From: an uncultured Alistipes sp.
GTDB lineage: Bacteria > Bacteroidota > Bacteroidia > Bacteroidales > Rikenellaceae
Assembly: GCA_944322375.1 (NCBI GenBank)
Contig: CALUOX010000001.1
Span: forward strand, 5,392-69,391
Reading direction: 5' to 3'
DNA length: 64,000 bases
The notes beneath the pieces were generated by a model, which was not told where the DNA came from, did no database searches, and saw nothing but the letters and a program-made list of their open reading frames with translations. Positions 46,437 through 64,000 of the stretch are shown one piece after another; within the stretch, counting starts at the first letter, position 1; every line of letters starts with the position of its first letter. The translations under genes and the position numbers were made by a program.

Positions 46437-46450
46437 AACAACATGCATAT

Positions 46451-48554: not shown

Positions 48555-48589
48555 AAAATAAAAGATGCCGGAATCTGAATTCCGGCATC
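48555..48589 (-). terminator. Intrinsic terminator after HAD gene
   Basis: gatgccggaat/attccggcatc followed by a T tract on the minus strand. Confidence 0.75.
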
Positions 48590-48611: not shown

Positions 48612-49481
48612 CTATCTGATTCCGCGCGCCTCTTTCAGGATATCTCCGAACTCCTTGAGCGACAATGCCGTGATGTGCGGCTGGGGATCGGCGGCTGCGG
48701 CAATCTCCTCGGTCGTTTCGCCCGACAGAACCAGGACGCCCATCGCGCCCGCATTGTGGGCCATCGCGACATCGGTGTAGATACGGTCGCCCACCATGGC
48801 GATCTCGTCGGCGGCCAGTCCGAAACGCTCCTTGATTCCGGTAAGCATGTTGGGGTCGGGCTTGCCCAGCACGATATCGGGCGTGCGGCCCGTGGCGTGT
48901 TCGAGGCACTTGCAGATCGATCCGCAGTCAACCAGTACGACCGGCTGGTCGGTCGGACATACCCGGTCGGGATTCGTCGCAATGTAGGGAATGCCCTGTG
49001 AAATCCACCATGCCGCACGGCAGAGACGCGGATATACGAGTGTCATGTCGAATGCGGCTACGATAATGTCCGGCACGTCGTCGGCACTGTCGGCCGTCGA
49101 TTCGAAACCGGCAGCCTCGAACTCCGAGATCATGCTCGGCGTCCCCAGCAGAAAGAGCCGTTTGGCCTGCGGGTAGTGCGACCTGATGTAGTCGATCGTG
49201 GCGAGTGCCGTCGTGTACATCTCTTCGCGTGTCGCCGTGATGCCCAGCGTTTCGAGTTTGTGCAGGTAGTCAGCAATGCTCTTCGAAGGGTTGTTCGTCA
49301 GAAACGAGTAGCCGATGCCCATCTGCGTGAGGTCCGAGAGGAACTGCTTCGTCCACGGGAAAAGCGACATGCCCATGTAGATCGTGCCATCCATGTCGAG
49401 TGCTACGTGTTTGATGCGCCGTGCGCGTTCCATCAACTCGTCGTGTGAGAAGGGCGAGCGGTACTTGTCTATTTTTGCCAT
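48612..49481 (-). CDS. HAD-IIA (NagD-like) phosphatase, cytoplasmic
   Basis: LDMDGTIY, LTNNPS, IATNPD, GKP, MVGDRIYTD; no signal peptide; start MAKIDKY; -7 box at 49556-49563. Confidence 0.92.
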   Translation of the reverse strand: MAKIDKYRSPFSHDELMERARRIKHVALDMDGTIYMGMSLFPWTKQFLSDLTQMGIGYSFLTNNPSKSIADYLHKLETLGITATREEMYTTALATIDYIRSHYPQAKRLFLLGTPSMISEFEAAGFESTADSADDVPDIIVAAFDMTLVYPRLCRAAWWISQGIPYIATNPDRVCPTDQPVVLVDCGSICKCLEHATGRTPDIVLGKPDPNMLTGIKERFGLAADEIAMVGDRIYTDVAMAHNAGAMGVLVLSGETTEEIAAAADPQPHITALSLKEFGDILKEARGIR

Positions 49482-49586
49482 TTTTTCTGATTCTGATATT
49501 GTATTCTCGTTTCGTTTCCGTGTGGGCCGCGCCGCCCCAAGGCGGCACAACCGCGCAAAGATAACGATTTTTCCGGGACCGACGAA

Positions 49587-51191
49587 CTATTGTTTCGGAT
49601 AATTCTCGACGGTCGGATAATCCGTTGGCAGGTTGGTCGTGAAGATGTTCTGCGTATAGGTGTTTCCGAACGGATCCGTGGCACGGACCTCGACGGCGGC
49701 ATCCGCATCCTTGAGCGTATAGTAATAGAGATGATCCGTCTGTTTGGGGTATGTCTTCCGTCCCAGGACACCGGCCAGATATCCGCTCGCCCAGGCATCG
49801 TAGTCCCGGAACCGGCTCATCTCACCCGTCTTGACGCCGTTTTCAAAGACCTCCACGGTCCAGTTCTTTGCGTCGGAGTTCCAGATATTGGCCACGATCT
49901 GGCTGTCGTTGTGATAGATGAACTGCGGCCGGTCATCGTAGGCATAGCGGGTGGCGGCACGGTACAGCCGGATCTGGTACTCCTTGTCGTAACGAACCGA
50001 TTTGTAATACCAGTTGGTGAAGGAGTCGCCGTCGATCTCGAAAACACCGTAGCCGTTGGGCGTACCCTCCGCGCAGATCGTCGAACGCCAGTGTGCACCG
50101 CAGACGGCTCCGTGGTTGTGTTCGTAGATGACGTGCTCGGGATCGGACGTCGCATGGAAATAGTTGCGGTTGCGGTGGCTGTGGCCGCTCATGATATGGG
50201 CTTCGGGGAACTGTTCCAGCAATCCGAGGATCGTTTGCTGTTGCCCGGCCGGAATCATGTCGAGTGTAACGTGCGTGCAGAAGATGACCAGCTTGTCCTT
50301 CTCCGTGAGCCCCAGGTCCTGTTGCAGCCATGCAAGCTGGGCCTCCGTGAATCCCCGCTCGTAGCTCGACGGGTTGTGCGTCTCATCCAACAGCAGAACG
50401 CTGTCCATGCCGACGATATGGACATTCCCCCGTTCGAACGAGTAGTCGCAGGGACCGAAGACCGCTTCGAAGTCCCGGCGGGCGGCAAGGTCATACGTGC
50501 TGCTGCCGGGGCTCAGCTCGGGATGGGTCGCCATGTCGTGATTTCCGATGACCTGGAAAAGCGGCATGCCGATCTGTTCCTCGCGCAGTACCTCGACCAT
50601 CAGCGGCATGATTACCGGCGTCACGTATTTTGTCCGGTTGTTGGAGATGACATCGCCGAGGGTAATCCCGTAAACGGGCGGTGTGCATTCGGCGGCATGT
50701 TCCCGGATATCGGGAACGGACTCGCTGACAAAACGGTTGAATTGTTCTGCGTCGCGTGTTTGGGGATCGGCAAGGCAGAAAAGCGTGAAATGCGTCTCGA
50801 CGGGTTGCCGTGCCCCCAATGTGAAATCGTAACGCTGCCGGTTGTCGGACAGCCGCTGCCAGAAGCAGGGCCGGCCGTCGGTCATGGGAACTTCCCGGTC
50901 GGCCGGAATGCGGTAATAGACATGAAAGGCATCCTTGTTGCGCGCCATCTGATAGATGCCGTTGGCATCGCTTGCGACGCAGGTGAATCCGTCGCTCACG
51001 ACGACCCCTTCGACCGGTGCACCCTCCGTATCGACAATCAATCCGTAGAGGTCGTTGCCCTCCTCGATGGGTGTTCGCAGCGCTGCGGCTTGCAATTGTC
51101 CGGATGTGGAGACGACGTTGCCGTCGCTCGGAGAGGCGGCGGTGAAAAATCCGCAGGCAAGCAGGAAAAGTGTGCAGATCAGCTTTTTCAT
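49587..51191 (-). CDS. Calcineurin-like phosphoesterase (MetallophosN/Metallophos/MetallophosC), paralog A
   Basis: ADPQ, LGD, GNHD, CTH, GHSH, HNHGAVCGAHW, GTPNGY. Confidence 0.9.
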   Translation of the reverse strand: MKKLICTLFLLACGFFTAASPSDGNVVSTSGQLQAAALRTPIEEGNDLYGLIVDTEGAPVEGVVVSDGFTCVASDANGIYQMARNKDAFHVYYRIPADREVPMTDGRPCFWQRLSDNRQRYDFTLGARQPVETHFTLFCLADPQTRDAEQFNRFVSESVPDIREHAAECTPPVYGITLGDVISNNRTKYVTPVIMPLMVEVLREEQIGMPLFQVIGNHDMATHPELSPGSSTYDLAARRDFEAVFGPCDYSFERGNVHIVGMDSVLLLDETHNPSSYERGFTEAQLAWLQQDLGLTEKDKLVIFCTHVTLDMIPAGQQQTILGLLEQFPEAHIMSGHSHRNRNYFHATSDPEHVIYEHNHGAVCGAHWRSTICAEGTPNGYGVFEIDGDSFTNWYYKSVRYDKEYQIRLYRAATRYAYDDRPQFIYHNDSQIVANIWNSDAKNWTVEVFENGVKTGEMSRFRDYDAWASGYLAGVLGRKTYPKQTDHLYYYTLKDADAAVEVRATDPFGNTYTQNIFTTNLPTDYPTVENYPKQ

Positions 51192-51410
51192 GATGCAAAT
51201 GTGTATTGGATGTGTGCTGGATTGAAATCAGGGACGCTTCAGGCGGGATGAACTTGATCGGTGTGACTTCGGGCGGCGGTTTTTACCGCCCGTGTTGTTT
51301 CTGCTCGGCGACATTGCGGGACTCATCCGGAAAAAGCGTCCGTCAGAACAGGAGGAACGAAGGAGCGTGGCCGATTGCGGGCATAAAGGCAACATGTGGA
51401 ATCCTGTTGC

Positions 51411-51491
51411 GATTGTCCCCCCCCCTCGGCTGTCTATAGGGCCGTCCGCTATGATTCGGGCCGTATAGACAGCTCCCGACAGGGGGAAATC
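51411..51491. repeat. Long imperfect intergenic hairpin containing C9
   Basis: gctgtctata/tatagacagc core extended by gattgtcccc...ggggaaatc. Confidence 0.65.
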
Positions 51492-51552
51492 GACTCCTCC
51501 GTTCGCCCTGTCCTGCGGACGTTTTCGGCGATGCCGGCTTGCCGCCGGTCGT

Positions 51553-53169
51553 TTACTGTTGCGGATAGTTCGCTACGGTCGGATAATCCGATTGGGAGTT
51601 GGTCGTGAACGTATCCTGCGTATAGACATTTTTAAACTTGTCCGTTGCACGGATCTCGACGGTGGCGGCATTGACATCCTTGAGCGTATAGTAATAGAGG
51701 TGCTCCGTCTGTTTGGTGTATGACGTGTGGCCCAGAACACCGGCGTGATATCCGCAGGCCCATACATCGTAGTCATCGGCCGCAAAACGTGACATCTGTC
51801 CGGTCTTGATGCCGTTTTCATAGACATCCACCGTCCAGTTTTCATCCGAGTTCCAGATGTTGGCCACGATCTGGTTCGCTTCGTGATAGTAGAATTGCTG
51901 GATGGGGGTGTAGTTGAAGCGCATATTGGCGCGGTACATGCGGATCTGGAAGGTCTTGTCGTAGCGCGTGGGCTTGTAGTACCAGTTGGAGAAGTCGGTG
52001 CCGTTGATGACGAAGACGCCGTATCCGTTGGGTGTTCCTTCCGCACAGATCGTCGATTTCCAGTGTGCACCGCACACGGCACCGTGGTTGTGTTCGTAGA
52101 TGCTGTATTCGGGGTCTGCCGCTACGTGCGTGTAGTTCAGATTGCGGTGGCTGTGTCCGCTCATGATATGGACATTGGGGAACTCCTGCAGCATGCCGAT
52201 TACCTTGCTCTGCTGATCGGCCAGAACCTTGTACATCGGTGCGTGAACGCAGAAGATGATCAGTTTGTCCTTCGATACGAAGCTCAGATCCTGTCGCAAC
52301 CACTCGATTTGATCCTCCGAGAATCCCAGTTCGTAGTTCGAGGGGTTGTGTTCGGGTTTCGACAGCAGGATGTTGTCCATGCCGATGATGTGGGCATTTC
52401 CCCGTTCGAACGAGTAGTCGCAGGGTCCGAACTGCGTCTCGAAGTCGCGACGGGCCGCAAGGTCGTAGGTGCTGCTGCCCTCGCTGATTTTCGGCTTGGT
52501 GGCATTGTCGTGGTTGCCCATAACCTGGAAGAGCGGCATCCCGATTTGGTCTTGCCGCATGAGCCGTGCAATTTGCGGCATGATGGTCGGTGTGACGTAC
52601 TCCTTGCTGTTGTTGGAGACAATGTCGCCGAGTGTGATGCCATAAACGGGAGGCGTACATGCTGCGACATGTTTTTTGATGTCAGGGACGGATTCATCGG
52701 CGAAACGGCCGAGTTCCGTAGCGTCGTTCGTTTGCGGATCGGCGAGACAGAAAAGCGTGAATTGCTTCTCGACAGCCTGTTTCGCCCCTATGGAGAAGTC
52801 ATAACGTTGCTGATCCTTCGAGAGTTTCTTCCAAAAACAGGGCGCGCCGTTGGCCATTTGGACGGGCCGGTCGGCCGGAATACGGTAAAAGACATGGTAG
52901 GCATCCTTGTTCCGTGCCATCTGGTAGACTCCGTTTTCATCGCTTGCGACACAGGTGAAACCGTCGCTGACGACGACCCCTTCAACAGGGGTGCCGGCAT
53001 TGTCGATCACGATTCCGTAGAGGTCATTGCCCGCTTCGATCGGGGTTTTCAACTCCGGTGCGGGTGTATCCGGCGTATCCGGTGTGTCGGGTGTATCCTC
53101 TCCGCCGCTTGAGCATGCGAAAATGAAGAACCCGCAAAGTAATAATAACAGCAAATCAGTCTTTTTCAT
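51553..53169 (-). CDS. Calcineurin-like phosphoesterase lipoprotein, paralog B
   Basis: Lipobox IFAC; DTP-repeat linker; ADPQ, LGD, GNHD, CVH, GHSH. Confidence 0.9.
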   Translation of the reverse strand: MKKTDLLLLLLCGFFIFACSSGGEDTPDTPDTPDTPAPELKTPIEAGNDLYGIVIDNAGTPVEGVVVSDGFTCVASDENGVYQMARNKDAYHVFYRIPADRPVQMANGAPCFWKKLSKDQQRYDFSIGAKQAVEKQFTLFCLADPQTNDATELGRFADESVPDIKKHVAACTPPVYGITLGDIVSNNSKEYVTPTIMPQIARLMRQDQIGMPLFQVMGNHDNATKPKISEGSSTYDLAARRDFETQFGPCDYSFERGNAHIIGMDNILLSKPEHNPSNYELGFSEDQIEWLRQDLSFVSKDKLIIFCVHAPMYKVLADQQSKVIGMLQEFPNVHIMSGHSHRNLNYTHVAADPEYSIYEHNHGAVCGAHWKSTICAEGTPNGYGVFVINGTDFSNWYYKPTRYDKTFQIRMYRANMRFNYTPIQQFYYHEANQIVANIWNSDENWTVDVYENGIKTGQMSRFAADDYDVWACGYHAGVLGHTSYTKQTEHLYYYTLKDVNAATVEIRATDKFKNVYTQDTFTTNSQSDYPTVANYPQQ

Positions 53170-53315
53170 ATTGTTGCGGTGGTAATTGTTGTTTGCCTTT
53201 CCTGTCGTGAATATCTATTCGGGAATAAAAATATAAATTTTCAGTTTAATATTTGCCTTTTCTGTTTTTTTCTTGATATCATTCATGCCGGCACGATTGT
53301 CGGAACATTAACCTA

Positions 53316-53365
53316 ATAAACCTTATCGGCAACTTATACAATCGCCAGTCGTCGATAAGGTTTAT
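53316..53365. repeat. Intergenic hairpin after paralog C
   Basis: Perfect 13-bp inverted repeat ataaaccttatcg/cgataaggtttat. Confidence 0.7.
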
Positions 53366-53382
53366 GCCCATGAGTGCCGGTG

Positions 53383-54975
53383 CTACTCCTTCGGGTAGTT
53401 CGCTACGGTCGGATAATCCGATTGGGAGTTGGTCGTAAACATCGTCTGTTTGTAGGTGTTTCCGAATTTGTCCGTTGCGCGAATCTCGACTGCAGCGTCC
53501 TTATCCTGTAATTTATAATAATACAGATGATCGAACGATCCCGTATAGGTCGTTTTACCGAGTACTCCCGCGTGATAACCGACCGCCCAGACATCGTTGT
53601 CGGTGTAACGTGTCATGTTCCCGGTTTTTGCCCCGTCTTCATAGACCTCGACGCTCCAGTTCCGATTGTCGGAATTCCAGATGTTGGCTATGATCTGATC
53701 GGAATTGTGATAAATGAACTGTTGGATGTCGTCGTAGGCAAAACGTTCATTGGCGCGGTACATGCGGATCTGGAACTCTTTCTCCATGCGGGTCGGCTTG
53801 TAATACCAGTTGACAATCGATGCGCCGTCGATTTCATATACGCCGTAACCATTGGGAGTGCCGTCCTTGTTGACCGTCGAGTTCCACCAGGCACCGCAGG
53901 CCGCTCCATGTACATGTTCGTAAATGTTGCGGCTCGTATAGATATAGTTTTGTCCGTAATGTGTATGTCCCGACATGATGTGGCTTTCGGCAAAACCGTT
54001 GAGCAGATCGCACACCTCGTTCATTCTGTTGTCCGAACTGTTGCGGATCGGGATATGAATGCACAGAATGACCATCTTGCTTTTCGGAACCAGCGCAAGA
54101 TCCTGACGGAGCCACTCTACCTGTGCATCGGTAAAGCCTTTTTCATACGTCGAGGGGTTATGCTTTTCGGTTTTGAGCAGGATGTCGTCCATGCAGACAA
54201 TATGTACATTGCCCCGATCGAACGAATAGTCGCAGGGTCCGAACTTGCTCTCGAATTCACGGCGTCCGCCCAGATCGTAGTTGCTGCTCCCCTCGCTGAT
54301 TTTCGGCTTCATCGAGTTGTCGTGATTGCCCATGACCTGGAAGAGCGGAATGCCCGTATTGTCCCGATGCATGACATTGCCCATTTGTGCCATCAGGGTC
54401 GGAAAGACATTTACCGAGGAGGTATTGAAAAGAATATCGCCGAGTGTAACGCCATACACCGGCGTATTGAATGTCGCACTGTGCTTTTTGATGTCGGGAA
54501 TGGTCTCGTCCTTGAATCGTGCGACGTCGGAATCCGATTGCACCTGCGGATCGGCGACGCAGAAAAGCGTGAATTTTGTCTCGACAGCCTGTTGTGCACT
54601 CAGGATAAAATCGTAACGTTGTTGAGAGGTGGAGAGTTTCTGCCAGAAACAGGGCAGTCCGTTGGCAATGGGTACGGCGCGGTCGGCCGGAATCCGGTAA
54701 AAGACATGGTAGGCATCCTTGTTGCGGGCCATCTGATAAACGCCGTTGGCATCGCTTTTGACGCATGAGAAGCCATCGCTTACGACTACGCCTTCAATGG
54801 GCGATCCGGTATTGTCGATCACGATTCCGTAGAGGTCATTGCCCGCTTCGATCGGTGTTTTCAATTCGGGCGCAGGCGTTTGGGCGCCCGGATCATCGTT
54901 GCCGCTGTCGTTTGAGCAGGCTGCAAAGAAAAGACTTCCTGCAACAAACAGGAACGAACAGATCAGTTTTTTCAT
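53383..54975 (-). CDS. Calcineurin-like phosphoesterase lipoprotein, paralog C
   Basis: Lipobox FAAC; ADPQ, LGD, GNHD, CIH, GHTH. Confidence 0.9.
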   Translation of the reverse strand: MKKLICSFLFVAGSLFFAACSNDSGNDDPGAQTPAPELKTPIEAGNDLYGIVIDNTGSPIEGVVVSDGFSCVKSDANGVYQMARNKDAYHVFYRIPADRAVPIANGLPCFWQKLSTSQQRYDFILSAQQAVETKFTLFCVADPQVQSDSDVARFKDETIPDIKKHSATFNTPVYGVTLGDILFNTSSVNVFPTLMAQMGNVMHRDNTGIPLFQVMGNHDNSMKPKISEGSSNYDLGGRREFESKFGPCDYSFDRGNVHIVCMDDILLKTEKHNPSTYEKGFTDAQVEWLRQDLALVPKSKMVILCIHIPIRNSSDNRMNEVCDLLNGFAESHIMSGHTHYGQNYIYTSRNIYEHVHGAACGAWWNSTVNKDGTPNGYGVYEIDGASIVNWYYKPTRMEKEFQIRMYRANERFAYDDIQQFIYHNSDQIIANIWNSDNRNWSVEVYEDGAKTGNMTRYTDNDVWAVGYHAGVLGKTTYTGSFDHLYYYKLQDKDAAVEIRATDKFGNTYKQTMFTTNSQSDYPTVANYPKE

Positions 54976-55022
54976 CGGTGTTGATTTGTTAAAAAAGAGA
55001 TGTTGCCCCTTTTGCTTTCAAG

Positions 55023-55051
55023 CGGGGACTCCCCCCCCCGAGGAGTCCCCG
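55023..55051. repeat. Hairpin after susD with C9 run
   Basis: cggggactcc/ggagtccccg; no U tract on the coding strand. Confidence 0.7.
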
Positions 55052-55074
55052 TGAAAGCTGAAGATCAGAAAGGG

Positions 55075-56880
55075 TTATTCAATCCACATGTAGTTCTGCT
55101 GCAGATTGGGGTTCTTGTCGATGGCCGTCTTCGGAACAGGGTGGATGTACCGTTGTTCGCTGAAGTGACGTTCGACATTGATCGTCAGACGTCCGTAGGT
55201 GTCAAATTCCAATCCTCGTTTTGCAGATAACGTGATGTATTTTACTCCGGGTTCGGTACCTGCGGCGCCGTCCACGACACAAACATCGTTCGTGCCGTCA
55301 TTGTTCAGATCATAGGCCGTATCCAACGCTCCGATGTAGATGCCGTACCACTGCTTGTTGAGCAGATGTCCCAGATGCCAGCGCATCAGGTCGTCGTAGC
55401 GGCGTCCTTCGAGCAGCAGTTCGATGGCACGTTCGCGACGGATCTCCAGAATATCGCTGTTGGTGATCTTGGGATTGCCGTCCTCTGCCGTATAGTAGTA
55501 ATCCTGCAGGTAAGGATCGATCTGCGTGGGGCGATCGCCGTTCACGCCGGCGCGCTCGCGCAACAGACGGATCGTCTTGTCCCAAACCGTATCGTCGAAT
55601 TCGCCCAATTCGGCCTTTGCTTCGGCGTAGTTGAGCAGGATCTCCGCATAGCGCAGAATAGGCAGCGAATTGGTGCAGATGCCCGAGGCTTCATACGAGT
55701 CGTCATCGACATTGAATTTGATGACCTGATAGCCGGAGTAGCTGACAGAGAAGTTCGGTGCGAAGGGTTTCGATACGCCGCTGACCAGTTTGCGATAGGT
55801 CGGCGAGATAATCGATTGCTGGAGCCGGTAGTCCTTGTTTTCGAAGATCTCCTGATAAGTCCTGCTCTTGTAGTCGGGATCATCCGTGAAACGGGTGCCG
55901 TCGAGATTCAGGTAGGTATAGACGAAATCGGCGTCAAGCGACCATCCCTGGCCCATCGAACCCGAGGTGTAGTACCACGTGATGTTGTGCCGCACGTTGA
56001 GTGCATCGTTGTACTCGCGGGCCCAGATGATCTCCTGTGACAGCACGGATTCCGTCGTAAAGAGCGAACGGTACTGCGATGCGACATTCGCCGACGAGCT
56101 GATGAGCGAATATACACCCGCATTCATCAACTCTTCGCAGGCGTCAGCGGCTTCACGCAGCCACTTGTTGTCCTTGTTGTACTCCGGATCCCAAGCCTTG
56201 CCTGTCGAGGGATCCACCGAGTGGTATTTGCGGTAGGTGCCTTCGAAGAGGCAGATGCGCGATTTGATACCCAGTGCGATCCATTTGTTGATCTTGGTGT
56301 TGTTTACCCATTCACTCGAACTGAAGCAGTGTTCGCAGGCATAATTTAAGTCCTCAAGCACTTTATCCATGACATATTCCCGACTGTCGCGCGGCTTGTA
56401 GAGGGCTTCGGTATCGGTCGAAAGAATGACATAGTCGTACCAAGGCACGGCGCCGAAGGTCTTGACCAGTTCGAAATAGTTCCATGCGCGCCAGAAACGG
56501 GCAGTGCCTTCATAGTGTGCATAGGTCTCTTCACTCAGCCCTTCGGCTTCGTGCATACGCTCAAGGAAGGTGTTGATATAGTAAACGAATTTCCATGCGC
56601 TGTTACCCCAACCTCCTTGCAATGCGGAGTTCCAACTGGGTTGATTCAGGTAATTCGATGTCTCTATTACCTGCACGATGTCGCAGTTCCCGTCCCCAAA
56701 TGTAAGTTCGGTGGCCGAAGGCAGGTAGGAGTTGATGAATCCGTTCGTGTATTGTAGCAGCGAAGATTCGTCTTTGAAGAAGTTGTCCGTACCGATCTCT
56801 TCGATCGGCTGCTTGTCGAGAAAATCTTCGCAGGATGCGAATGTCAGACAAGCAAGTACTGCATATATTGCTTTTTTCAT
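55075..56880 (-). CDS. SusD/RagB family lipoprotein
   Basis: Lipobox FASC-EDFLD; RFWRAW.YF.LVK.FGAVPW, LRYAEILLNYAEA, RRERAIEL..EG.RY.DL.RW, NPNL.QN. Confidence 0.96.
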   Translation of the reverse strand: MKKAIYAVLACLTFASCEDFLDKQPIEEIGTDNFFKDESSLLQYTNGFINSYLPSATELTFGDGNCDIVQVIETSNYLNQPSWNSALQGGWGNSAWKFVYYINTFLERMHEAEGLSEETYAHYEGTARFWRAWNYFELVKTFGAVPWYDYVILSTDTEALYKPRDSREYVMDKVLEDLNYACEHCFSSSEWVNNTKINKWIALGIKSRICLFEGTYRKYHSVDPSTGKAWDPEYNKDNKWLREAADACEELMNAGVYSLISSSANVASQYRSLFTTESVLSQEIIWAREYNDALNVRHNITWYYTSGSMGQGWSLDADFVYTYLNLDGTRFTDDPDYKSRTYQEIFENKDYRLQQSIISPTYRKLVSGVSKPFAPNFSVSYSGYQVIKFNVDDDSYEASGICTNSLPILRYAEILLNYAEAKAELGEFDDTVWDKTIRLLRERAGVNGDRPTQIDPYLQDYYYTAEDGNPKITNSDILEIRRERAIELLLEGRRYDDLMRWHLGHLLNKQWYGIYIGALDTAYDLNNDGTNDVCVVDGAAGTEPGVKYITLSAKRGLEFDTYGRLTINVERHFSEQRYIHPVPKTAIDKNPNLQQNYMWIE

Positions 56881-56892
56881 GGTTGTTCAAGT

Positions 56893-59800
56893 TTAGAAGG
56901 TAATGCTCAGACCGATGCTGTAGGAACGCATGACGGGATAACCGTCGCCATCACCCGAACCGTCGCCGCCCCGCGTGCTCGAGAAATCGGAGTCACCGGC
57001 GTAGATGCCTTCGGGATCGTAGTTCTTGGCGTATTTCTTCAACGGAGTGAAGGTCAGCAGGTTCTCGCCCGAAAGATAGATGCGCAGATTCTGAATGCCG
57101 GCCTTGCTCAACAACTTCTTGGGGAAGGTGTAGTCGATGGTCAGGTTCTTCAGACGCAGGTAGCGGGCATTCTGCAGGTAACGTGTATTAGGCTGAGAAA
57201 GAAGCCCTTTCGACGTCTGGGCTATGTAACCCACCAAACGCGGCCAGTAGGCGTTCGTATTTCCATTCTCGTCGGTGTAGCGGTCGCTGTGCCAAGGCAG
57301 AGAGATACTGTACGGACGTCCGTACTGGCCCCAGAAGTAACCCGACTCCTTTGCGGGATACCAGTCGCGGCGGCCTACGCCCTGCCATACCATCGACAGC
57401 CCGATGCCGTTCCAGTTCACACCGGCCGACAACGAATAGCTGTAACGCGGCGAGGTGTTGCCGATAACCGACAGGTCGCCGTGATCCTCCAAGGTGTTGG
57501 AACCATTGTCAATTCGACCGCTGTTATCGAGATCCTCGTATTTAGGATCACCTTTCTGCCAGATAATGGTGTTGTCGGTAAACTGTGAATAATCGAGCGA
57601 CTGGGCTTCTTCGTTGCTTTGGAAGAGTCCGTTGCAGGTGTAACCCCAGATTTCACCAATCGTCATGCCTTCATAGTAGTTGGTCGAATAGTTCGTCGGA
57701 AGCGTATTGGTCGTTGCCGTGAATTTTGTCACTTTCGTCGTGCTGTCCCAAACCATCGCCTTGATGTTGTAGCTGAAGGGCTTGCCTCCCAACTGGAAGC
57801 TGTCTCGCCACGAAATGCTGGCTTCCCAGCCGTTGGTTCGCATGTCGGCGTAGTTGCCTTTGGGAGCATTGTTGCCGAATACTGCCGGCAACTCCGGACC
57901 CGTTACGATCATGTCCTTCGTATCCTTGCGGTAGATATCGGCGACAAGCAACAGGCGACCGTTCAACATCTCCCAGTCCAGACCGAGGTCATAGGTGCTG
58001 ACCGTCTCCCAGGTCAGGCCATCGGGGGCCAAGGTCGGAACGCCGGCATAAACCAGCGGACTGCCGCCGGTCAGGATACCTGTACTGCGCGTGATGGCGA
58101 TCTTGCTTAGATAAACGTAGTCGTCCACCTGTCCGTTACCGGTCGAACCGAACGAGGCGCGGATCTTCAGGTTGTCCAGCCAGTTTTTGGTGCCCTCCAT
58201 GAATTTCTCCTCGGAGATACGCCAGCCGATCGATGCCGAGGGGAAGAAACCCCAACGCTGATTGCTCGGGAACTTCGAGTTACCGTCATATCGACCGCTC
58301 ACCTCGGCAAGATACCGCCCCTTGTAGCTGTAGTTGACGCGGAAGAAGGCACCCACGAGGCTCGACGAATAGCTGCCGTTGCCCTTTGCCGTGGGAAGTT
58401 CACCGGCCAAAAGATCCAGGGTCGGGTGGTCGGCGTCAATGACATCCGTGTTCTTCGCCATCGTGGTTGTGTAGGTGTAGTCTTCGATGTTCCAGCCGCC
58501 CATTACCTTGAGCCAGTGGTTCTCACCCAGTTTGGGAGTCCAGGTCAGCACGGCGTTGCTGGCTACACGTTCGCGGTTGTAGTAGCGCTCCTCATACCAG
58601 GAGGTAGCGGGTCGCTCGCCCGAAGAGTTGGGACCCGTATAGTACGTATAAGGGATAGCGAGCATGTGGCGTTCCGTGTGGTTGCGGTAGTAGTTTACGT
58701 CCACATCGGCTACCAGCACGTCCTTGATGAAGTCAATCGTGAACTTCGTACGGTTGTTGAGGTCGAACTTGTCGTCTTCACGCCAGGTATGGCCCTCGAC
58801 GAAACCGGCCCAGCCCATGTAAACGGCGGCGTCGGTCCATGTTCCGTCGGGGTTCTTCTCCAGCGTCATCGGGAAGCCCTGATGGTTCATCATACGGGTC
58901 GGCGTAACGGTAAAGGACTGTCCGCCGGTGGTCAGTGTCGGCTGGTGCGAGAACCGGCTCATGAACGACATGGTGTTCTCCACGCTCAGCCATTTGTTGA
59001 CTTTAACGGTTCCCTTTGCCAGTACGTTGTACTGGTTGTAGCGTTCGTCACCGGCATTGTAGATGCCGTCCTGATGGAAGTAACGGCCGGAAAGATAGAA
59101 CGAAGCGCGGTCCGTTCCACCCGTGATGGAGAGGTTGTGCTGGTGACCGGTCGTATAGTTCTTGTAGAAGATGTCGTACCAGTTCGTGTTGCCGAAATAC
59201 TCGTAACGCCCGTCGGCGGGGTTGACGCGCCACTTTTCAAAGGACGGATCGGCATCGCGGCGTACCAGTTCGTTGTACCATGTGCGGTTGAAACGGAATA
59301 CGTTGTTGATGTTTGCGGGATCCGTCTGTTTGCAGTTGATATAGGATTCGAGGTAGGAGTTGGTCCAGTTCAGACCGTTGTCCACGAGTTCCGGAGTGAC
59401 GGTACGCTGGTAGAAGTTGTAGGAGCCGTTGTAGGTAATTTTCAGCTGGCCCTTTTCCGGCTTTTTGGTCGTGATGAGGATCACGCCGAAGGTACCGCGC
59501 GAACCGTAAACGGCCGTCGAGGAGGCATCCTTCAGTACAGTTACGCTCTCGACGTCTTCCGGGTTGACGGTTTCAATACCCATCTCGACGCCATCGACGA
59601 GAACGAGTGTCGAACCGCCCGAACCGATCGAGTTCGTGACGCCTCGGATGCGGAGCGTACCGCCGCGAGTCGGTTTACCGTCGGAGAAGGTAACGGTCAG
59701 GCCCGGAATCGATCCTTGCAGGGAACGGGTTACGTTCTGGTAGGAACCGAGGCGGTCTTCGATATCTTTGCTTGTGATTTGCTCTACGGCGCCGACGATG

Positions 59801-60204
59801 TCGCGTTTTTTCTGTACGCCGTAACCTACGACGACGATCTCTTCAAGGCTGGTGTTGTCCTCTTCGAGGGTGACGTTGATTGTGGATTGGTTGTTGACGG
59901 GAACGAGTTGGGTCTTGTAGCCGATGAAGCTGAAATTCAGAGATTCCTTGCTGGAAACGGAGATTGTGTAGTGACCCTCGATATCGGTGGTGGTACCGCG
60001 CGACGTGTCGGGGATTGTGATTGCTGCACCTACGATAGGATTGCCGCTCTTGTCTTTAACGGTACCCGAGACGGTATTCCCCCCCCCTTGTGCCATAACG
60101 GAGGTTGTAAGGGCCGTCAAAACAAGCGCAACCATGAAGAATCCGATACGCCGGCAATGGTCTGCGAGCGAACGGCGTCCTCTCTGAGTAGAACGTTGTT
60201 TCAT
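56893..60204 (-). CDS. SusC/RagA family TonB-dependent transporter
   Basis: Start MKQRSTQ; VSGTVKD, VVVGYGVQKK, LKDASSTAVYGSRGTFGVILITTK, SGRYDGNSKF, RWGFFPS; ends YPVMRSYSIGLSITF. Confidence 0.97.
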   Translation of the reverse strand: MKQRSTQRGRRSLADHCRRIGFFMVALVLTALTTSVMAQGGGNTVSGTVKDKSGNPIVGAAITIPDTSRGTTTDIEGHYTISVSSKESLNFSFIGYKTQLVPVNNQSTINVTLEEDNTSLEEIVVVGYGVQKKRDIVGAVEQITSKDIEDRLGSYQNVTRSLQGSIPGLTVTFSDGKPTRGGTLRIRGVTNSIGSGGSTLVLVDGVEMGIETVNPEDVESVTVLKDASSTAVYGSRGTFGVILITTKKPEKGQLKITYNGSYNFYQRTVTPELVDNGLNWTNSYLESYINCKQTDPANINNVFRFNRTWYNELVRRDADPSFEKWRVNPADGRYEYFGNTNWYDIFYKNYTTGHQHNLSITGGTDRASFYLSGRYFHQDGIYNAGDERYNQYNVLAKGTVKVNKWLSVENTMSFMSRFSHQPTLTTGGQSFTVTPTRMMNHQGFPMTLEKNPDGTWTDAAVYMGWAGFVEGHTWREDDKFDLNNRTKFTIDFIKDVLVADVDVNYYRNHTERHMLAIPYTYYTGPNSSGERPATSWYEERYYNRERVASNAVLTWTPKLGENHWLKVMGGWNIEDYTYTTTMAKNTDVIDADHPTLDLLAGELPTAKGNGSYSSSLVGAFFRVNYSYKGRYLAEVSGRYDGNSKFPSNQRWGFFPSASIGWRISEEKFMEGTKNWLDNLKIRASFGSTGNGQVDDYVYLSKIAITRSTGILTGGSPLVYAGVPTLAPDGLTWETVSTYDLGLDWEMLNGRLLLVADIYRKDTKDMIVTGPELPAVFGNNAPKGNYADMRTNGWEASISWRDSFQLGGKPFSYNIKAMVWDSTTKVTKFTATTNTLPTNYSTNYYEGMTIGEIWGYTCNGLFQSNEEAQSLDYSQFTDNTIIWQKGDPKYEDLDNSGRIDNGSNTLEDHGDLSVIGNTSPRYSYSLSAGVNWNGIGLSMVWQGVGRRDWYPAKESGYFWGQYGRPYSISLPWHSDRYTDENGNTNAYWPRLVGYIAQTSKGLLSQPNTRYLQNARYLRLKNLTIDYTFPKKLLSKAGIQNLRIYLSGENLLTFTPLKKYAKNYDPEGIYAGDSDFSSTRGGDGSGDGDGYPVMRSYSIGLSITF
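60079..60087 (-). repeat. G9 homopolymer within right susC (codons 40-42, AQ-GGG)
   Basis: Plus strand attCCCCCCCCCttg; frame intact at 9 G. Confidence 0.95.
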
Positions 60205-60480
60205 TATTAAAAACAGTTTAAGTTTAGAATTCGGTTCGTGTTGATAGGTTGGCATTGTCGAGGACGTTGAAATAGGACAACGACGAAAAATAAGACAACG
60301 ACGCATGCCGCGCTCTCACTCTGTGCAGGCTGGTCCGCGTTAAACTGTTCCGGAGGATGAAAAATAAGGTTAGTTGAGGTTCATTCTGTAAAGGTGTAAA
60401 GTTTTAAGTTTGGCTTTTATTTGTTTTCGGTCTCTTTTTGGTTTCTCTTCTGTTTCCAAAAAGGAGTTATAAGGTCTTTG

Positions 60481-60717
60481 CAAATATATCGTTATTCTTT
60501 CTTTTTGCAAAATATTTTACGCTTTTTTTATGTTTTCATGTGAGAATTTCTCTGAAATGTAAATAAACACGGTTCAAACACTTTTCCTGAAAAATCGAAC
60601 GCATGAAAATTTATGAGTGTCGGAAGGTGTCGTATCTCTTTTTTGCTCTTTTTTAGCTCAATTTTGCTTTTTTTTGTCTGGAGAAAATTTGGATTATTGA
60701 AAATTTTGTTACCTTTG
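60481..60717. promoter_or_regulatory. Divergent promoter region: -7 box for susC (60481-60488, minus) and for the lipoprotein (60710-60717, plus)
   Basis: caaatata and tacctttg consensus boxes in AT-rich DNA. Confidence 0.65.
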
Positions 60718-60827
60718 TCCTTGCAAGCTGATCTGTATCATTCTTTTCCTGGAGGAAGGGGGCGTCGAAATGATGCGTCCTTGAGCTATTTTGTTACAAT
60801 AGTTATTACTCTAAATCGGAAAACTTT

Positions 60828-63749
60828 ATGAAAATCACAAAATGGATGGCTGCAGCTGCGCTGCTCCTCTCTTTTGGTTTGTCGGGTTGTACAGAGGACC
60901 TTACCGACGAGGTGAGCCAGTTGACCCGCAATACCGATGAGGTGACTGTGGCCTATAATAAAGGTGCTACGACAAGTTTCACCGTGCGTGTCCCCGGAGC
61001 ATGGGCCGCTACGGCAGCTTGTAAGGATGCGGCAGGTCAGAGTACCTCCTCCTGGATTACACTCGAGCCCTCCGAAGGCGTGGGTGACGGCAAGCAGTAT
61101 CAGACCGTGACGGTCATTGCCGACCGCAATGCCGGCGAGGCTCGTGAAGCCATTATTACGGTTGTCGGTGCTACGCGCGGGGATGCCGTAGAGATCAAGG
61201 TTTCGCAGGAAGCCGGTATTTTCGAGGTCGGAGACCCTGTAATCTCCGGCTCGTTGAAAGAGAAGGTGCCTTCGACGGCATCCATAGAAATCAGCTACAC
61301 AAAGGCGCTCGGCGGTGAGGAGGTGACGGTTGAGGCCTCTTTCGAAGGCGACAACTACGGCTTGTCGGTCGAAAAGTATTCGACGACGGTCGAGACGGAA
61401 GGCGACGGCGCATGGAAAGTTCCCATCGAGGGTACTCCGACCAAAATGGGACTTGTCACCATCAATCTTAAGATTACGGCCGGAGAGTTGACGTTCGACA
61501 GGAAGTTCAGTTACGACATCAGCTCCGAAACCACGATCTTCCGTTTCGGATTCGACAAGTTCGTATGGGGCGGCGATGCGATCAACAATGAGGAAGGTGT
61601 GGTGCCGACGGAAGATGGTACGGGCGCAACGGGCTCATATGACGGAACCGAGCCGGCACGTTCTACCTGTACGCGTGGTACCGACGGTACGGGCAACTGC
61701 TTCGCGACGATGGGTGAAGAGTACCGTAAGAACCGGGACATCTCCGACTGGGACGGCACCAGGGTGTATGAGCATCCGGGCTATGTGAAGATCGGCGTCA
61801 CTGCCGAGGGCGGATGGATCATGACCCCGCCGATGAGCGCCATTGCCGGTACGACGGATATCGACGTATCGTTCAAGGCGGCGCATTGGAATGAGGAGAA
61901 CGGCCATACGGATATCGTCTTCGCCGTCGAAGGCGACGGTGTAATCGACGGCAGCGCCGTACTGATCATGCCGGCTGCGGATACATGGAAGAAGGTGAAG
62001 AAGAACGGCTGGACGCAATTCAAGATCCGTGTGCTGGACGCTACATCCAATACCCGTTTGAAGTGGTCGGCTGCGGATCTGACGACCGGCGGTTCGCGCT
62101 TCATGCTTGACGACATTCTGGTGGAGGTCTCGAAGGAGCGAACCGAACCGCTGAATCCCGTTACGGCCGAGACGATTTCCTATACGGCTGAGGAGAATTC
62201 GTTGACCTTCACATGGGATGCCGTGGAGGATGCCTCTGCATATCGGTTGGAACTGGCGCGTGAAGCAACACCGGATTTCATGCAGACGGTCGAAGTTGCG
62301 GAGACGACCTATACCTTCGACAAGCTGGAACCCGATTATTATCTTCTGACCATTCGCGCGCTCTTCTCGCAGAACGAGGAGTTCAATTCGGAACCCGTGA
62401 CGGTAACGGCCGCGACTGCAGGGCTCAGCTATGGAAAGTTGGATACGCCGGCGTTGAACGTCGAATCGACGGCATGGACCGCGAATGTTTCGTGGAATGC
62501 GGTTGAGCGTGCTACGGGATATGAATGCGTGTTGAAGGACGGCGGGCAGCCAATCGACACGCAGACCCTCGATGCAGACCACACGTCGATAAGCTATACG
62601 GGCTTGACGGAGGAACATCAGTACGAAGTCTCGGTCACGGCTCTTTATGACCGTGATCCGCAGTACAATTCGGATGCGGCAACGGCAGCAATCCAGACAA
62701 AGGCGCTGGAGGTCGAGGCTCCGACAAATGTTGCTCTTTACGCGAAGAGCCCGACGACCCTGACCTTTGCTTGGGACGACACTAACAAGAATGGGCGTAC
62801 CTATACGGTTCAGTATGCGTCGGAGGCTTCGGACAAGGCTGCGAAGTTGGCCGAATTCAGCTATACATGGACAACCAAATCGACGGATCCGAGCTGGACC
62901 TGGGCTTATCCGACGCGCATCACGATCGTTTCGTTCATGAACGAGGACCGCACGATCGGTTCGGAGGCAAATCTGATCCGTCCCGGACAGACCTGTTACT
63001 TCCGTGTACGTTGCGGCGGTGCTTCTGATGAAAGCAAGTGGTCGGACTGGGTGTCCGCTACGACCGATACACGCACGGCACCGGCCAATGAGATCTTCTA
63101 CGAAGGTTTCGACAGGTGCTTCGTGGGCGGCGGCGACTGGCTGAACCAGGCAAACTGCTCGGTTATTACGAAAGATAAGAATCAAACGGATATCTGGCAG
63201 TTGAAATTGTCAACGTCATTGGCGTCCAATGCCGTTTCTACCTTCGGCAATATCTATACGGCGGGCAACATGACGACCGATGTCGCTTCGTGGATCGGCT
63301 ATACACGCATCTGGGATCGCGGTACCGGTAATGGTGACCTCCAGCCGTGCCCGGGTTATGTGAAATGCGGCAACGGCTCGAATGTCGGCGCCTTCCGTAT
63401 TCTGGCTTTGGGTACGGACAAGCTGGCGGCCGAAGGCGAGGATGTGACCCTGACATTCAAGGCAACGCCCTGGAGCGAGGTGACGACCGGTGCCGGATAC
63501 ACGATGGACAACAAGCTGGTGGACATCTATGTCAACGACGTGGTTGTGGCGACCGACGTGCGGATTACCGATTCGAATGCGGTTGATGGCGATCCGGCCG
63601 TTCTGACCGACATGAAGTGGAAGACGGTTTCGATCGATATTCCCGCCCTGAAGCCCACCGATCAGATCACGATCATGAGCAAGACCAACGAGGCACTCGG
63701 AGCCAAAGGCCGTTTCTTCCTCGATGAGGTTTCGGTGGTGAAGAAGTAA
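60828..63749 (+). CDS. Large surface lipoprotein: BACON-like domain, FN3-like repeats and two homologous beta-sandwich domains
   Basis: Lipobox LSGC-TED; WITLEPSEG..G..DRNAGEAREA; W.AV..A..Y repeats; duplicated (F/E)GFD..(V)GG.D...PGYVK.G...FKA..W...RF.LD.I.V. Confidence 0.82.
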   Translation: MKITKWMAAAALLLSFGLSGCTEDLTDEVSQLTRNTDEVTVAYNKGATTSFTVRVPGAWAATAACKDAAGQSTSSWITLEPSEGVGDGKQYQTVTVIADRNAGEAREAIITVVGATRGDAVEIKVSQEAGIFEVGDPVISGSLKEKVPSTASIEISYTKALGGEEVTVEASFEGDNYGLSVEKYSTTVETEGDGAWKVPIEGTPTKMGLVTINLKITAGELTFDRKFSYDISSETTIFRFGFDKFVWGGDAINNEEGVVPTEDGTGATGSYDGTEPARSTCTRGTDGTGNCFATMGEEYRKNRDISDWDGTRVYEHPGYVKIGVTAEGGWIMTPPMSAIAGTTDIDVSFKAAHWNEENGHTDIVFAVEGDGVIDGSAVLIMPAADTWKKVKKNGWTQFKIRVLDATSNTRLKWSAADLTTGGSRFMLDDILVEVSKERTEPLNPVTAETISYTAEENSLTFTWDAVEDASAYRLELAREATPDFMQTVEVAETTYTFDKLEPDYYLLTIRALFSQNEEFNSEPVTVTAATAGLSYGKLDTPALNVESTAWTANVSWNAVERATGYECVLKDGGQPIDTQTLDADHTSISYTGLTEEHQYEVSVTALYDRDPQYNSDAATAAIQTKALEVEAPTNVALYAKSPTTLTFAWDDTNKNGRTYTVQYASEASDKAAKLAEFSYTWTTKSTDPSWTWAYPTRITIVSFMNEDRTIGSEANLIRPGQTCYFRVRCGGASDESKWSDWVSATTDTRTAPANEIFYEGFDRCFVGGGDWLNQANCSVITKDKNQTDIWQLKLSTSLASNAVSTFGNIYTAGNMTTDVASWIGYTRIWDRGTGNGDLQPCPGYVKCGNGSNVGAFRILALGTDKLAAEGEDVTLTFKATPWSEVTTGAGYTMDNKLVDIYVNDVVVATDVRITDSNAVDGDPAVLTDMKWKTVSIDIPALKPTDQITIMSKTNEALGAKGRFFLDEVSVVKK

Positions 63750-63770
63750 TTGAAGAAAACCCTCTCTGGC

Positions 63771-63800
63771 AGGCGGGCCGCATGTGCGGCCCGCCTTTTT
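63771..63800 (+). terminator. Intrinsic terminator
   Basis: Perfect 12-bp stem aggcgggccgca/tgcggcccgcct followed by T residues. Confidence 0.88.
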
Positions 63801-63903
63801 AATATGTGAAAAGGGAGCGATATCATTTTGACTGGCTGGATTTTTTGGAGAATTGCCTGAATTTTTCTATATTTACACAATTCAATTAGAAATAACTCGA
63901 AAT

Positions 63904-64000
63904 ATGTTGAGCGTAGCCGAGAGACACAAGTATATTCTCGATCATCTGAACAAGTACGGTTTTGTCCGTATTACCGATGTGGCCAATGAATTGGGCGTTA
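63904..64000 (+). CDS. DeoR/GlpR family transcriptional regulator, N-terminal HTH (runs off right edge)
   Basis: Hand translation MLSVAERHKYILDHLNKYGFVRITDVANELGV fits the DeoR pattern ER...IL..L...G.V.V..LA..LGV. Confidence 0.85.
   Translation, partial: MLSVAERHKYILDHLNKYGFVRITDVANELGV

Follow-up and report, generated by a model that had tools for sequence, protein, structure and literature searches.

A SusCD locus of an uncultured Alistipes with metallophosphoesterases and no recognizable carbohydrate-active enzyme: a candidate system for the utilization of phosphodiester substrates

SusC/SusD-like pairs that stand beside phosphoesterases and lack carbohydrate-active enzymes (CAZymes) have been described as PUS or PusCD loci from Flavobacterium johnsoniae (Lidbury et al., 2020, PMC8115612). 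Of these, PusCD1 and PusCD2, importers of inositol-phosphate compounds, were termed the first functionally characterized SusCD-type transporters for organophosphorus compounds (Connolly et al., 2026, preprint, 10.64898/2026.09.03.749221). The same study describes the PusD proteins as polyphyletic and already remarks on pusCD-like pairs beside glpQ-like genes in gut Bacteroidota (10.64898/2026.09.03.749221). Here, we describe a locus of this kind from an uncultured Alistipes sp., whose genome assembly comprises 2.52 Mb in 139 contigs. It is located at the right end of a stretch of 64,000 nucleotides (contig C1:5392-69391), referred to as the window throughout. On the minus strand the genes susC and susD, three genes for metallophosphoesterases (MPE1, MPE2, and MPE3) and a gene for a HAD-IIA phosphatase follow each other in this order, and on the plus strand a divergent pair consists of a gene for a 973-aa lipoprotein and the gene of a DeoR-family regulator. 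The listing of open reading frames (ORFs) and the Pfam and NCBIfam profile scans from which this order was derived, together with the relatives of the locus in this and other genomes, make it probable that the locus serves the SusCD-based utilization of a phosphodiester substrate in the broad sense, nucleic acid included. That substrate might in particular be a teichoic-acid- or phosphoglycan-like polymer built from polyol or sugar phosphates and shed by neighboring gut bacteria, an assignment to which we give a little less than an even chance.

The eight genes of the locus are, in window coordinates:

56893..60204, minus strand: susC, SusC-like TonB-dependent transporter of 1103 aa (TIGR04056, 838 bits against a cut-off of 368; SusC signature TIGR04057)
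55075..56880, minus strand: susD, SusD-like protein, predicted surface lipoprotein (PF07980, 146 bits; PF14322)
53383..54975, minus strand: MPE1, susD-adjacent copy, predicted lipoprotein (Pfam; lipobox FFAAC followed by SNDSGNDD)
51553..53169, minus strand: MPE2, paralogue and predicted lipoprotein, 66% identical to MPE3 (Pfam; lipobox FIFAC followed by SSGGEDTPD)
49587..51191, minus strand: MPE3, third paralogue, all invariant motif residues present, long hydrophobic N-terminus LICTLFLLACGFFTAAS (Pfam)
48612..49481, minus strand: HAD-IIA phosphatase, predicted to be cytoplasmic, 289 aa from MAKIDKY, ORF open to 49550 (TIGR01460, 126.2 bits against a cut-off of 100.15; Hydrolase_6, Hydrolase_like)
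60828..63749, plus strand: lipoprotein of 973 aa, predicted to be surface-exposed (Pfam BACON and fn3; lipobox LSGC followed by TEDLTDE)
63904..64000, plus strand: first 32 codons of the DeoR-family regulator (HTH_DeoR and DeoRC), full gene at 69295-70062 of contig C1

All of these genes had been named in the first-pass annotation of this DNA, which had also stated that no glycoside hydrolase (GH), polysaccharide lyase (PL), carbohydrate esterase (CE) or sulfatase is recognizable. The profile scans agree on both points, as no Pfam or NCBIfam model of these four classes matched any of the eight locus genes, and none of GH, PL or CE type matched their flanks. The locus hence shows the SusC/SusD adjacency that defines a polysaccharide utilization locus (PUL) of the Sus type, whereas the at least one GH, PL or CE that the strict definition also asks for is missing.

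By gene content, a SusCD-like pair with phosphoesterases and without CAZymes, the locus corresponds to what has been called PusCD. The PUS system likewise pairs SusC/SusD-like proteins with periplasmic phosphoesterases, a PF00149 enzyme among them, and imports organophosphorus compounds across the outer membrane. PUS is, however, induced by phosphate depletion and draws phosphorus from phosphatidylinositol, glycerophosphoinositol (GroPI) and inositol-1-phosphate (IP1), whereas the DeoR-type regulator found here suggests control by the substrate rather than induction by phosphate depletion. Furthermore, the MPEs of the Alistipes locus belong to another family (MetallophosN/MetallophosC, with a D-P-Q motif) and are triplicated, and a surface lipoprotein with two modules resembling carbohydrate-binding modules (CBMs) as well as a cytoplasmic HAD-IIA enzyme appear to be added. 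The host, too, differs: it is an Alistipes from the gut, and roughly half of its SusC genes are linked to phosphoesterases. With classical Sus-type PULs the locus has in common the SusC/SusD core, a BACON- and CBM-like surface binding lipoprotein, lipoprotein enzymes and a presumably substrate-responsive regulator; it differs from them in having phosphoesterases in place of GH, PL and CE enzymes and a DeoR-type regulator in place of hybrid two-component systems, extracytoplasmic function/anti-sigma factor pairs or SusR. GlpQ (GDPD family) and PhoD of Bacillus subtilis and Staphylococcus aureus depolymerize polyol-phosphate polymers to polyol phosphates for reuse. A periplasmic GDPD at the MPE position of a sister locus, C24, recalls these enzymes, which are nevertheless phosphate-starvation enzymes of Gram-positive bacteria without outer-membrane import and belong to another superfamily than the MPEs. 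Finally, the Rus system of Bacteroides thetaiotaomicron and its variants in Bacteroidetes are, like the present locus, SusCD-based systems for substrates outside the classical range. The figure on Rus variants lists in its gene key DeoR, GDPD, HAD, cpdA-type phosphodiesterases, BACON and aldolases, and Alistipes senegalensis is named among the most complex rus-like systems (Glowacki et al., bioRxiv 10.1101/574913). The defining components of Rus, however, are ribokinases, the RusT permease and RusR, and Pfam and NCBIfam detected none of these among the genes of this locus.

A scan of species-representative genomes with SusD yielded five orthologous loci in Alistipes species, with SusD identities of 72-96%. 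The synteny that the first-pass annotation had proposed to check is present in all five, in the form of a core consisting of the lipoprotein gene and the divergent genes susC, susD and MPE. Three of the five (L020, L022, and L023) carry the HAD-IIA gene 3′ of the MPE gene, and two carry the DeoR gene and an enolase gene beyond the lipoprotein gene. Judged from gene content, neither these five loci nor their flanks contain CAZymes. The MPE is the sole enzyme conserved together with SusCD; a triplicated MPE was observed in the present locus and its closest relative only. In addition, four independent metagenome contigs contain an identical MPE1 in the same gene order. Since the arrangement recurs on these contigs and in five Alistipes species, it is neither due to chance nor to an assembly artefact; it is real and under selection. 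The contigs also help to place the start of susC, whose ORF is open to 60306; the ATG at 60204, which was called on all four of them, is the likely start. Just past the signal-peptide codons, susC contains a homopolymer of nine G (60079-60087) encoding QGGGN. This tract is G11 in L020, G9 in L023 and G10 in L019, and it is G8 in the susC of the sister locus C24. Such length variation between species at a conserved site could permit slipped-strand on/off switching.

The strongest support for the general inference of the first-pass annotation, namely that SusCD serves a phosphate-linked substrate here without CAZymes, comes from the other SusCD systems of the same genome. Nine of the 17 SusC genes are located no more than 6 kb from a gene with an MPE or GDPD domain. 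When the paralogous systems were ranked by identity to the SusC and SusD of this locus, eight out of nine with measurable SusC similarity adjoined a phosphodiester-type enzyme (MPE, GDPD, S1/P1 nuclease or NAGPA), the exception being C10, and in none of the nine related loci inspected in this genome was a glycosidase present. The systems are, with SusC/SusD identities:

C24 (56/50%): lipoprotein with two copies of a domain termed domain X below, periplasmic GDPD, and a DeoR paralogue (60%) directly after susD
C10 (47/47%): no enzyme recognized
C11 (46/41%): S1/P1 nuclease directly after lipoproteins
C51 (43/42%): two MPEs, GlpT/PgtP-family transporter, glycerol-1-phosphate-dehydrogenase-like enzyme, class II aldolase with a GatZ-like partner
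C33 and C59 (36-37/33-35%): MPE
C28 (34/32%): NAGPA "phosphodiester glycosidase"
C3 (SusC 31%): two MPEs, histidine acid phosphatase, Zn-dependent polyol dehydrogenase, PfkB kinase
C1-left (SusC 31%): MPE

The whole transporter clade thus appears to be tied to phosphodiester chemistry. In C24, the closest of these systems, the GDPD occupies the very position that the MPEs have in the present locus. C28 (L046:6594-7928, minus strand) is a FecR-controlled SusCD system followed by a 444-aa protein with a NAGPA domain (PF09992, E 2e-20) and represents a candidate system for sugar-1-phosphate diester polymers. C11 (L044:622-4228) contains, in this order, SusC, SusD, a BACON lipoprotein, a lipoprotein with Big_2 and a five-bladed-propeller-like region, and the S1/P1 nuclease (PF02265, E 1e-32), and is a candidate nucleic-acid SusCD locus; C24 and C10 also encode its propeller-like lipoprotein, for which a phage receptor-binding platform domain is a weak match. 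In C51 (L042) a domain X lipoprotein is coupled with SusCD, the two MPEs, the glycerol-1-phosphate-dehydrogenase-like enzyme and the GlpT/PgtP-family transporter. Because sn-glycerol-1-phosphate is the stereoisomer found in lipoteichoic acid, a connection of C51 with this polymer is tempting.

The 973-aa lipoprotein is composed of a BACON domain, a first copy of domain X (aa 234-435), three Fn3-like repeats and a second copy of domain X (aa 753-973). Domain X denotes two internal repeats that are unannotated and whose boundaries were taken from an iterated hidden Markov model (HMM). Sequence searches of the PDB with the whole lipoprotein returned fibronectin repeats only, and a search with the domain X profile returned no match. 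An AlphaFold model of domain X built from a 23-row alignment reached a predicted local distance difference test score (pLDDT) of 88, while the single-sequence model (pLDDT 37) was unusable. The former is a beta jelly roll whose Foldseek neighbors are CBM35, CBM6, CBM22, CBM4, the cleaved-adhesin domain of the gingipain Kgp and MAM domains (E 3e-5 to 1e-3), with 55 PDB matches at E<=1e-3, dominated by these types, and target-normalized template modeling scores of about 0.5-0.6, a likeness at the level of the predicted fold. The choice-of-anchor J model was matched by four of the 23 domain X copies. By sequence, 19 of the 23 match NF052644, the NCBIfam family of the T9SS-dependent (T9SS, type IX secretion system) surface endonuclease AS87_RS02955 of Riemerella anatipestifer, with E-values down to 2e-14; the whole lipoprotein matches it at E 9e-18, with 64.5 bits against a cut-off of 260. 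According to a summary in PMC12398890, AS87_RS02955 was reported to degrade DNA and RNA (Zhu et al., 2022). Both proteins are surface proteins of Bacteroidota related in sequence through domain X; the one studied here, however, carries a lipoprotein signal, matches no NCBIfam model of a T9SS sorting domain at its C-terminus, has a predicted binding-module fold and shows no conserved catalytic residues. A reading of the lipoprotein as a nuclease was dropped as the primary one given the score far below the cut-off, the jelly-roll fold and the absence of conserved catalytic residues. Since the fold is of the CBM/MAM type and a single Phe, Arg and Asp are the only invariant residues, which do not amount to a nuclease-like catalytic set, domain X is read as a CBM-like binding module rather than a catalytic nuclease. 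The Riemerella homology nevertheless indicates that relatives of domain X deal with a polyanionic phosphodiester polymer.

Within this genome the domain X HMM matches exactly six proteins, five of which are encoded in SusCD loci with an MPE or GDPD, while the sixth lies 3′ of a partial MPE gene at the beginning of a contig, a position at which any SusCD gene would have been cut off. A word-based homologue search with domain X alone gave no match, and an exhaustive profile search was therefore used for a census, which comprised 1715 cluster representatives. Among 34 long proteins of this set that were scanned for domains, eight contain MetallophosN/Metallophos/MetallophosC, one contains GDPD and one or two contain esterases, and none of the 34 contains a GH, PL (lyase) or nuclease domain. 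One domain X protein of the global set has a BD-FAE esterase as its fusion partner. Three other Alistipes genomes encode tandem lipoproteins of 920-1250 aa in which a fusion places domain X immediately upstream of the same MPE family. The corresponding loci, L033 (G003:C22), L034 (G014:C57) and L035 (G022:C7), are tandem arrays of two or three lipoproteins of 817-1246 aa, most of which fuse domain X and the MPE catalytic core; they lie in housekeeping surroundings without SusCD nearby and look like free-standing surface depolymerases.

Each of MPE1-3 consists of MetallophosN, Metallophos and MetallophosC (PF16371 and PF16370 around PF00149), with 70-74 bits (cut-off 35.6), 27-37 bits (21.5) and 122-133 bits (29.7), and pairwise identities of 59-66%. 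MPE1 is the copy nearest (60-67%) to the single MPE of the orthologous loci L019, L020 and L023, which makes MPE1 the ancestral copy and MPE2 and MPE3 derived duplicates. In an alignment of 20 family members including the three copies studied here, motifs II-V (GD, GNHD, H, and GHxH) were invariant in all members. Motif I is an invariant D-P-Q instead of D-x-H, with Gln replacing His, and PF00149 scores above its cut-off in all three copies but starts at profile position 32-35. The term "full-motif" phosphoesterases used in the first-pass annotation therefore holds for motifs II-V of all three copies and is slightly overstated with regard to motif I. The signal peptides and surface exposure were assigned by eye. 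While MPE1 and MPE2 have lipoboxes, the N-terminus of MPE3 (LICTLFLLACGFFTAAS) is more like a signal-peptidase-I signal, for which reason MPE3 is probably periplasmic.

A PDB sequence search with MPE1 alone yielded no match. With the MPE profile, purple acid phosphatases (PAPs) ranked first (E 2e-7; e.g., 1qfc and 1ute), including the wheat PAP phytase 6git, followed by SMPDL3A, whereas Rv0805 and GpdQ were weak matches. The MPEs share with PAPs the aligned GD, GNHD, H and GHxH motifs and a beta-sandwich N-terminal to the catalytic domain. They differ from them in the D-P-Q of motif I, in the additional MetallophosC domain and in the metal ligands: of the seven ligands of PAPs, the Tyr of GDxxY is absent, since the motif reads GDIxxN or GDVISN, with Leu or Asn at the Tyr position. 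Because this ligand is missing and the E-values are only about 1e-7, the MPEs appear to form a distinct, uncharacterized branch, which might cleave either monoesters or diesters. This genome encodes 12 members of the family and other Alistipes genomes up to 17, numbers that seem to fit structurally diverse substrates such as teichoic acids and capsules better than nucleic acid.

The HAD-IIA enzyme lacks a signal peptide and contains the motifs DMDGT (ORF residues 51-55) and GDRIYTD; its orthologues begin with MATIDKY or MATIESY. It does not reach any equivalog model (NagD, PGP), and its presumed substrate is a phosphorylated intermediate of the pathway.

Regarding regulation, the first-pass annotation had called the link of the regulator to the locus unproven, as the gene is cut by the edge of the window. 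The complete gene was recovered from the contig; it encodes 256 aa, ends 671 bases past the window and matches HTH_DeoR with 57 bits and DeoRC with 148 bits. Its adjacency is conserved in L020, L022 and the metagenome contigs, and a 60%-identical paralogue is located inside the sister locus C24, directly after susD. The link is further suggested by an element of 33-34 nt that is found twice in the divergent intergenic region (A and B), both times within conserved blocks of the five-species alignment; the core motif of the two occurs at no other intergenic site in the genome. The link to the locus can thus be made on three counts, the adjacency, the paralogue and the repeated element, with A and B as putative DeoR operators. 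The best NCBIfam matches of the regulator are AgaR, SrlR and GlpR, all below their cut-offs (AgaR 197 against 260) and none reaching an equivalog, whereas Escherichia coli DeoR is among the weakest matches listed, which results in a mild preference for a sugar- or polyol-phosphate effector. The control elements and terminators of the locus are:

60324..60356, minus strand: repeat element B in the susC leader, candidate operator (CCTCCGGAACAG...GACCAGCCTGCA; conserved block in the five orthologous intergenic regions)
60481..60488, minus strand: susC −7 promoter box of presumed Bacteroidota type, TATATTTG, kept in four of five aligned orthologues and diverged in L019
60710..60717, plus strand: presumed −7 promoter box of the lipoprotein gene, TACCTTTG
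60722..60755, minus strand: repeat element A, just downstream of the lipoprotein −7 box, candidate operator (CCTCCAGGAAAAG...GATCAGCTTGCA; conserved block)
63771..63796, plus strand: strong intrinsic terminator between the lipoprotein gene and deoR (11-bp stem with 10 G-C pairs, followed by TTTTT)
48564..48589, minus strand: strong intrinsic terminator at the end of the susC-to-HAD operon (11-bp stem followed by TTTTATTTTG), 23 nt past the HAD stop codon

The −7 boxes were found by eye and assigned on the basis of the Bacteroidota consensus TAnnTTTG; sigma-70 promoter scans are uninformative for this phylum. They imply a susC leader of roughly 270 nt, with element B within it, downstream of TATATTTG. 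The block ...TTGCATGACAAAG... of the lipoprotein promoter also occurs upstream of the lipoprotein paralogues of C24 and C51. In the terminator scan no minus-strand terminator of comparable strength was present from susC to the HAD gene, which makes a single susC-to-HAD operon plausible. A small hairpin (60755-60785) in the 5′ untranslated region of the lipoprotein gene, downstream of element A, is kept in the five Alistipes orthologues, three of its base pairs being changed on both sides (n=5 sequences). It matches no Rfam family and may be a structured leader or attenuator; an Rfam search of the locus as a whole matched no known RNA family either.

Taken together, the fold predicted for domain X, the fusions of this domain to MPE and GDPD, the paralogous loci and the DeoR paralogue of C24 uphold the proposal that SusCD serves a phosphate-linked substrate in a locus free of CAZymes, with capture at the surface, cleavage of phosphoesters and a sensor of the DeoR type. 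Such a system could work as follows. The surface lipoprotein would capture the polymer with its two CBM-like domain X modules, between which the Fn3 repeats serve as spacers, and the lipoproteins MPE1 and MPE2 as well as the probably periplasmic MPE3 would cut or trim phosphoester bonds. Fragments would be imported by SusD and SusC, and the polyol- or sugar-phosphate released from them would enter the cell by a transporter encoded elsewhere. The DeoR repressor would sense a phosphorylated intermediate and control both divergent promoters, possibly via the twice-repeated element of 33 nt, and the HAD-IIA phosphatase would dephosphorylate the phosphorylated intermediate in the cytoplasm. A teichoic-acid or phosphoglycan type polymer is favored as the substrate because the closest sister locus has a GDPD and another one a NAGPA, because paralogues link to organophosphate import and to the catabolism of polyol- and sugar-phosphates, because binding modules of the polymer type are fused to the enzymes, and because the number and variety of the paralogues suggest a structurally diverse class of substrates.

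Several observations weigh against this assignment. The locus itself contains neither a catabolic gene for polyol- or sugar-phosphates nor an inner-membrane transporter, so that this link rests on the paralogues. The hydrolases known to act on teichoic acids are GDPD- and PhoD-family enzymes and not members of the MPE family of this locus. The nearest solved relatives of the MPEs, PAPs and a plant PAP phytase, are mainly monoesterases, the matches to GpdQ and Rv0805 being weak, and both the S1/P1 nuclease of C11 and the homology of domain X to a reported DNase/RNase point to nucleic acid. Nor is the MPE family restricted to CAZyme-free loci, since it occurs twice in a locus of another Bacteroidales family (L037, G028:C368) together with GH13, SusC, SusD, a major facilitator superfamily (MFS) transporter, GH31 and an S15 peptidase. 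The MFS transporter of L037 resembles the GlpT/UhpC type by eye, and this locus may be a system for a phosphorylated alpha-glucan such as phosphorylated starch.

Based on the nuclease of C11 and the Riemerella homology, nucleic acid is a serious rival, for which we assume about one chance in four. Domain X would then bind or even cut extracellular DNA or RNA at the cell surface, SusCD would import oligonucleotides, the MPEs would be periplasmic phosphodiesterases or nucleotidases, the HAD-IIA enzyme a nucleotide monophosphatase of the NagD type, and DeoR would sense a pentose phosphate. The NF052644 matches of most domain X sequences and the S1/P1 nuclease of the sister locus C11 agree with this, as do the many nucleases and nucleotidases of the MPE superfamily and the presence of SMPDL3A among the profile matches; in E. 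coli, the HAD-IIA enzyme NagD dephosphorylates UMP and DeoR regulates the catabolism of nucleosides. The domain X score of 64 bits is nonetheless far from the NF052644 cut-off, its predicted CBM/MAM jelly roll with F, R and D as the only invariant residues does not resemble a nuclease, and neither a nuclease nor a nucleoside hydrolase, nucleoside phosphorylase or nucleoside transporter was recognized in the locus by Pfam or NCBIfam. Moreover, E. coli DeoR is among the models to which the regulator bears the least similarity, the HAD enzyme shows no specific likeness to NagD, and fusions or linkages of domain X also involve GDPD, an enzyme that does not act on nucleic acid. One uniform polymer is also hard to square with at least six differently equipped paralogous loci and with the 12-17 MPE copies per genome.

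Somewhat less probable, at about one in five, is the scavenging of small organophosphates or phosphomonoesters in the manner of PusCD, with inositol phosphates or phytate, glycerophosphodiesters of lipid head groups, or phosphorylated oligosaccharides as substrates. The PAP-like MPEs would in this case mainly be acid phosphatases or phytases that provide phosphorus or carbon, a role made possible, for monoesters such as phytate, by the similarity of their catalytic domain to PAPs, the wheat phytase among them. PusCD1 and PusCD2 bind inositol-1-phosphate and glycerophosphoinositol and adjoin diesterases of the metallophosphoesterase type (PMC8115612; bioRxiv 10.64898/2026.09.03.749221). The histidine acid phosphatase of C3 is of the MINPP type, and the dehydrogenase and kinase of that locus are weakly IolM- and IolC-like; the combination of MPE with GH13, GH31 and an organophosphate transporter in L037 would fit a phosphorylated alpha-glucan. 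On the other hand, the pair of CBM-like modules in a 973-aa surface protein and the fusions of this module to the enzyme are hallmarks of polymer capture, not of the uptake of small molecules, the Tyr ligand of PAPs is absent (GDIxxN), and a catabolic repressor of the DeoR type, as opposed to a Pho-type regulator, would argue against pure phosphate scavenging. An ordinary glycan PUL whose depolymerases are unrecognized or located elsewhere, with the MPEs as accessory enzymes that remove phosphate decorations, would be compatible with the MPEs beside GH13 and GH31 in another Bacteroidales family and with the resemblance of domain X to CBMs, but is very improbable in view of the absence of CAZymes from the five orthologous Alistipes loci, their flanks and the nine related SusCD loci of this genome, and of the MPE being the sole enzyme conserved with SusCD and triplicated here.

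The first-pass annotation had also allowed for CAZymes of the same regulon just outside the window; no CAZyme lies directly on either flank. To the right, the contig continues with the DeoR gene and an enolase gene on the opposite strand and then ends; in the orthologous locus L020 one more non-CAZyme ORF, queA-like by eye, follows beyond the enolase. To the left, plus-strand genes converge on the operon, namely those for a 311-aa coiled-coil protein, an alpha/beta hydrolase, a DUF3108 protein and RecG. The sole CAZyme of the neighborhood is a GH123 (41443-43329) on the far side of RecG, about 5 kb to the left. That it might belong to the locus as a hidden CAZyme was ruled out, as it is encoded on the opposite strand and RecG, three other genes and terminators intervene. 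The hydrolase directly adjoining on the left together with the 311-aa protein, a coiled-coil membrane protein, is an esterase of the Abhydrolase_3/BD-FAE type (46433-47224, plus strand). Counterparts of both are found near the locus in L020, and in L023 a counterpart of the 311-aa protein only (N-terminal similarity). In L020 a peptidase of family C10 with a Spi inhibitor domain is inserted between these two genes and the HAD gene according to Pfam; in L023 an ORF of similar size occupies the same position.

The kind of system, SusCD beside phosphoesterases, is already known from PusCD, whereas the MPE family, domain X and its fusions, control by DeoR and the scale of the expansion in Alistipes are undescribed; literature searches on MetallophosN/C, on teichoic acid and PULs and on calcineurin-like phosphoesterases and PULs found nothing direct. 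Among the phosphorus-rich polymers of the gut, teichoic acids, phosphodiester-linked capsules and nucleic acids rank with the most abundant. To our knowledge, their harvest by Bacteroidota has hardly been described. Organophosphate importers of the SusCD type have been characterized only from soil Flavobacterium, where they take up small inositol-phosphate compounds. The locus and its relatives provide a testable set of parts, comprising a binding module together with an enzyme family, a clade of transporters and a regulator that has a candidate operator, and would, if the interpretation is true, add a new pair of enzyme and binding module to the Sus paradigm. A bolder proposal, which we consider rather doubtful at present, is that Alistipes possesses a family of teichoic-acid and phosphoglycan utilization loci in which domain X, as a hitherto unrecognized module that binds phosphodiester polymers, and the D-P-Q MPE family take the parts of CBMs and glycoside hydrolases, the triplication tuning this particular member. 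Should that unlikely case prove correct, these loci would represent the first route by which Gram-negative gut commensals depolymerize and consume the wall polymers of Gram-positive bacteria. Alistipes is usually described as poorly saccharolytic, and in this genome nine of 17 SusC genes stand beside genes of the MPE or GDPD type. Utilization of phosphodiester substrates, if confirmed, would explain part of the niche of Alistipes as cross-feeding on dead Gram-positive cells or nucleic acid.

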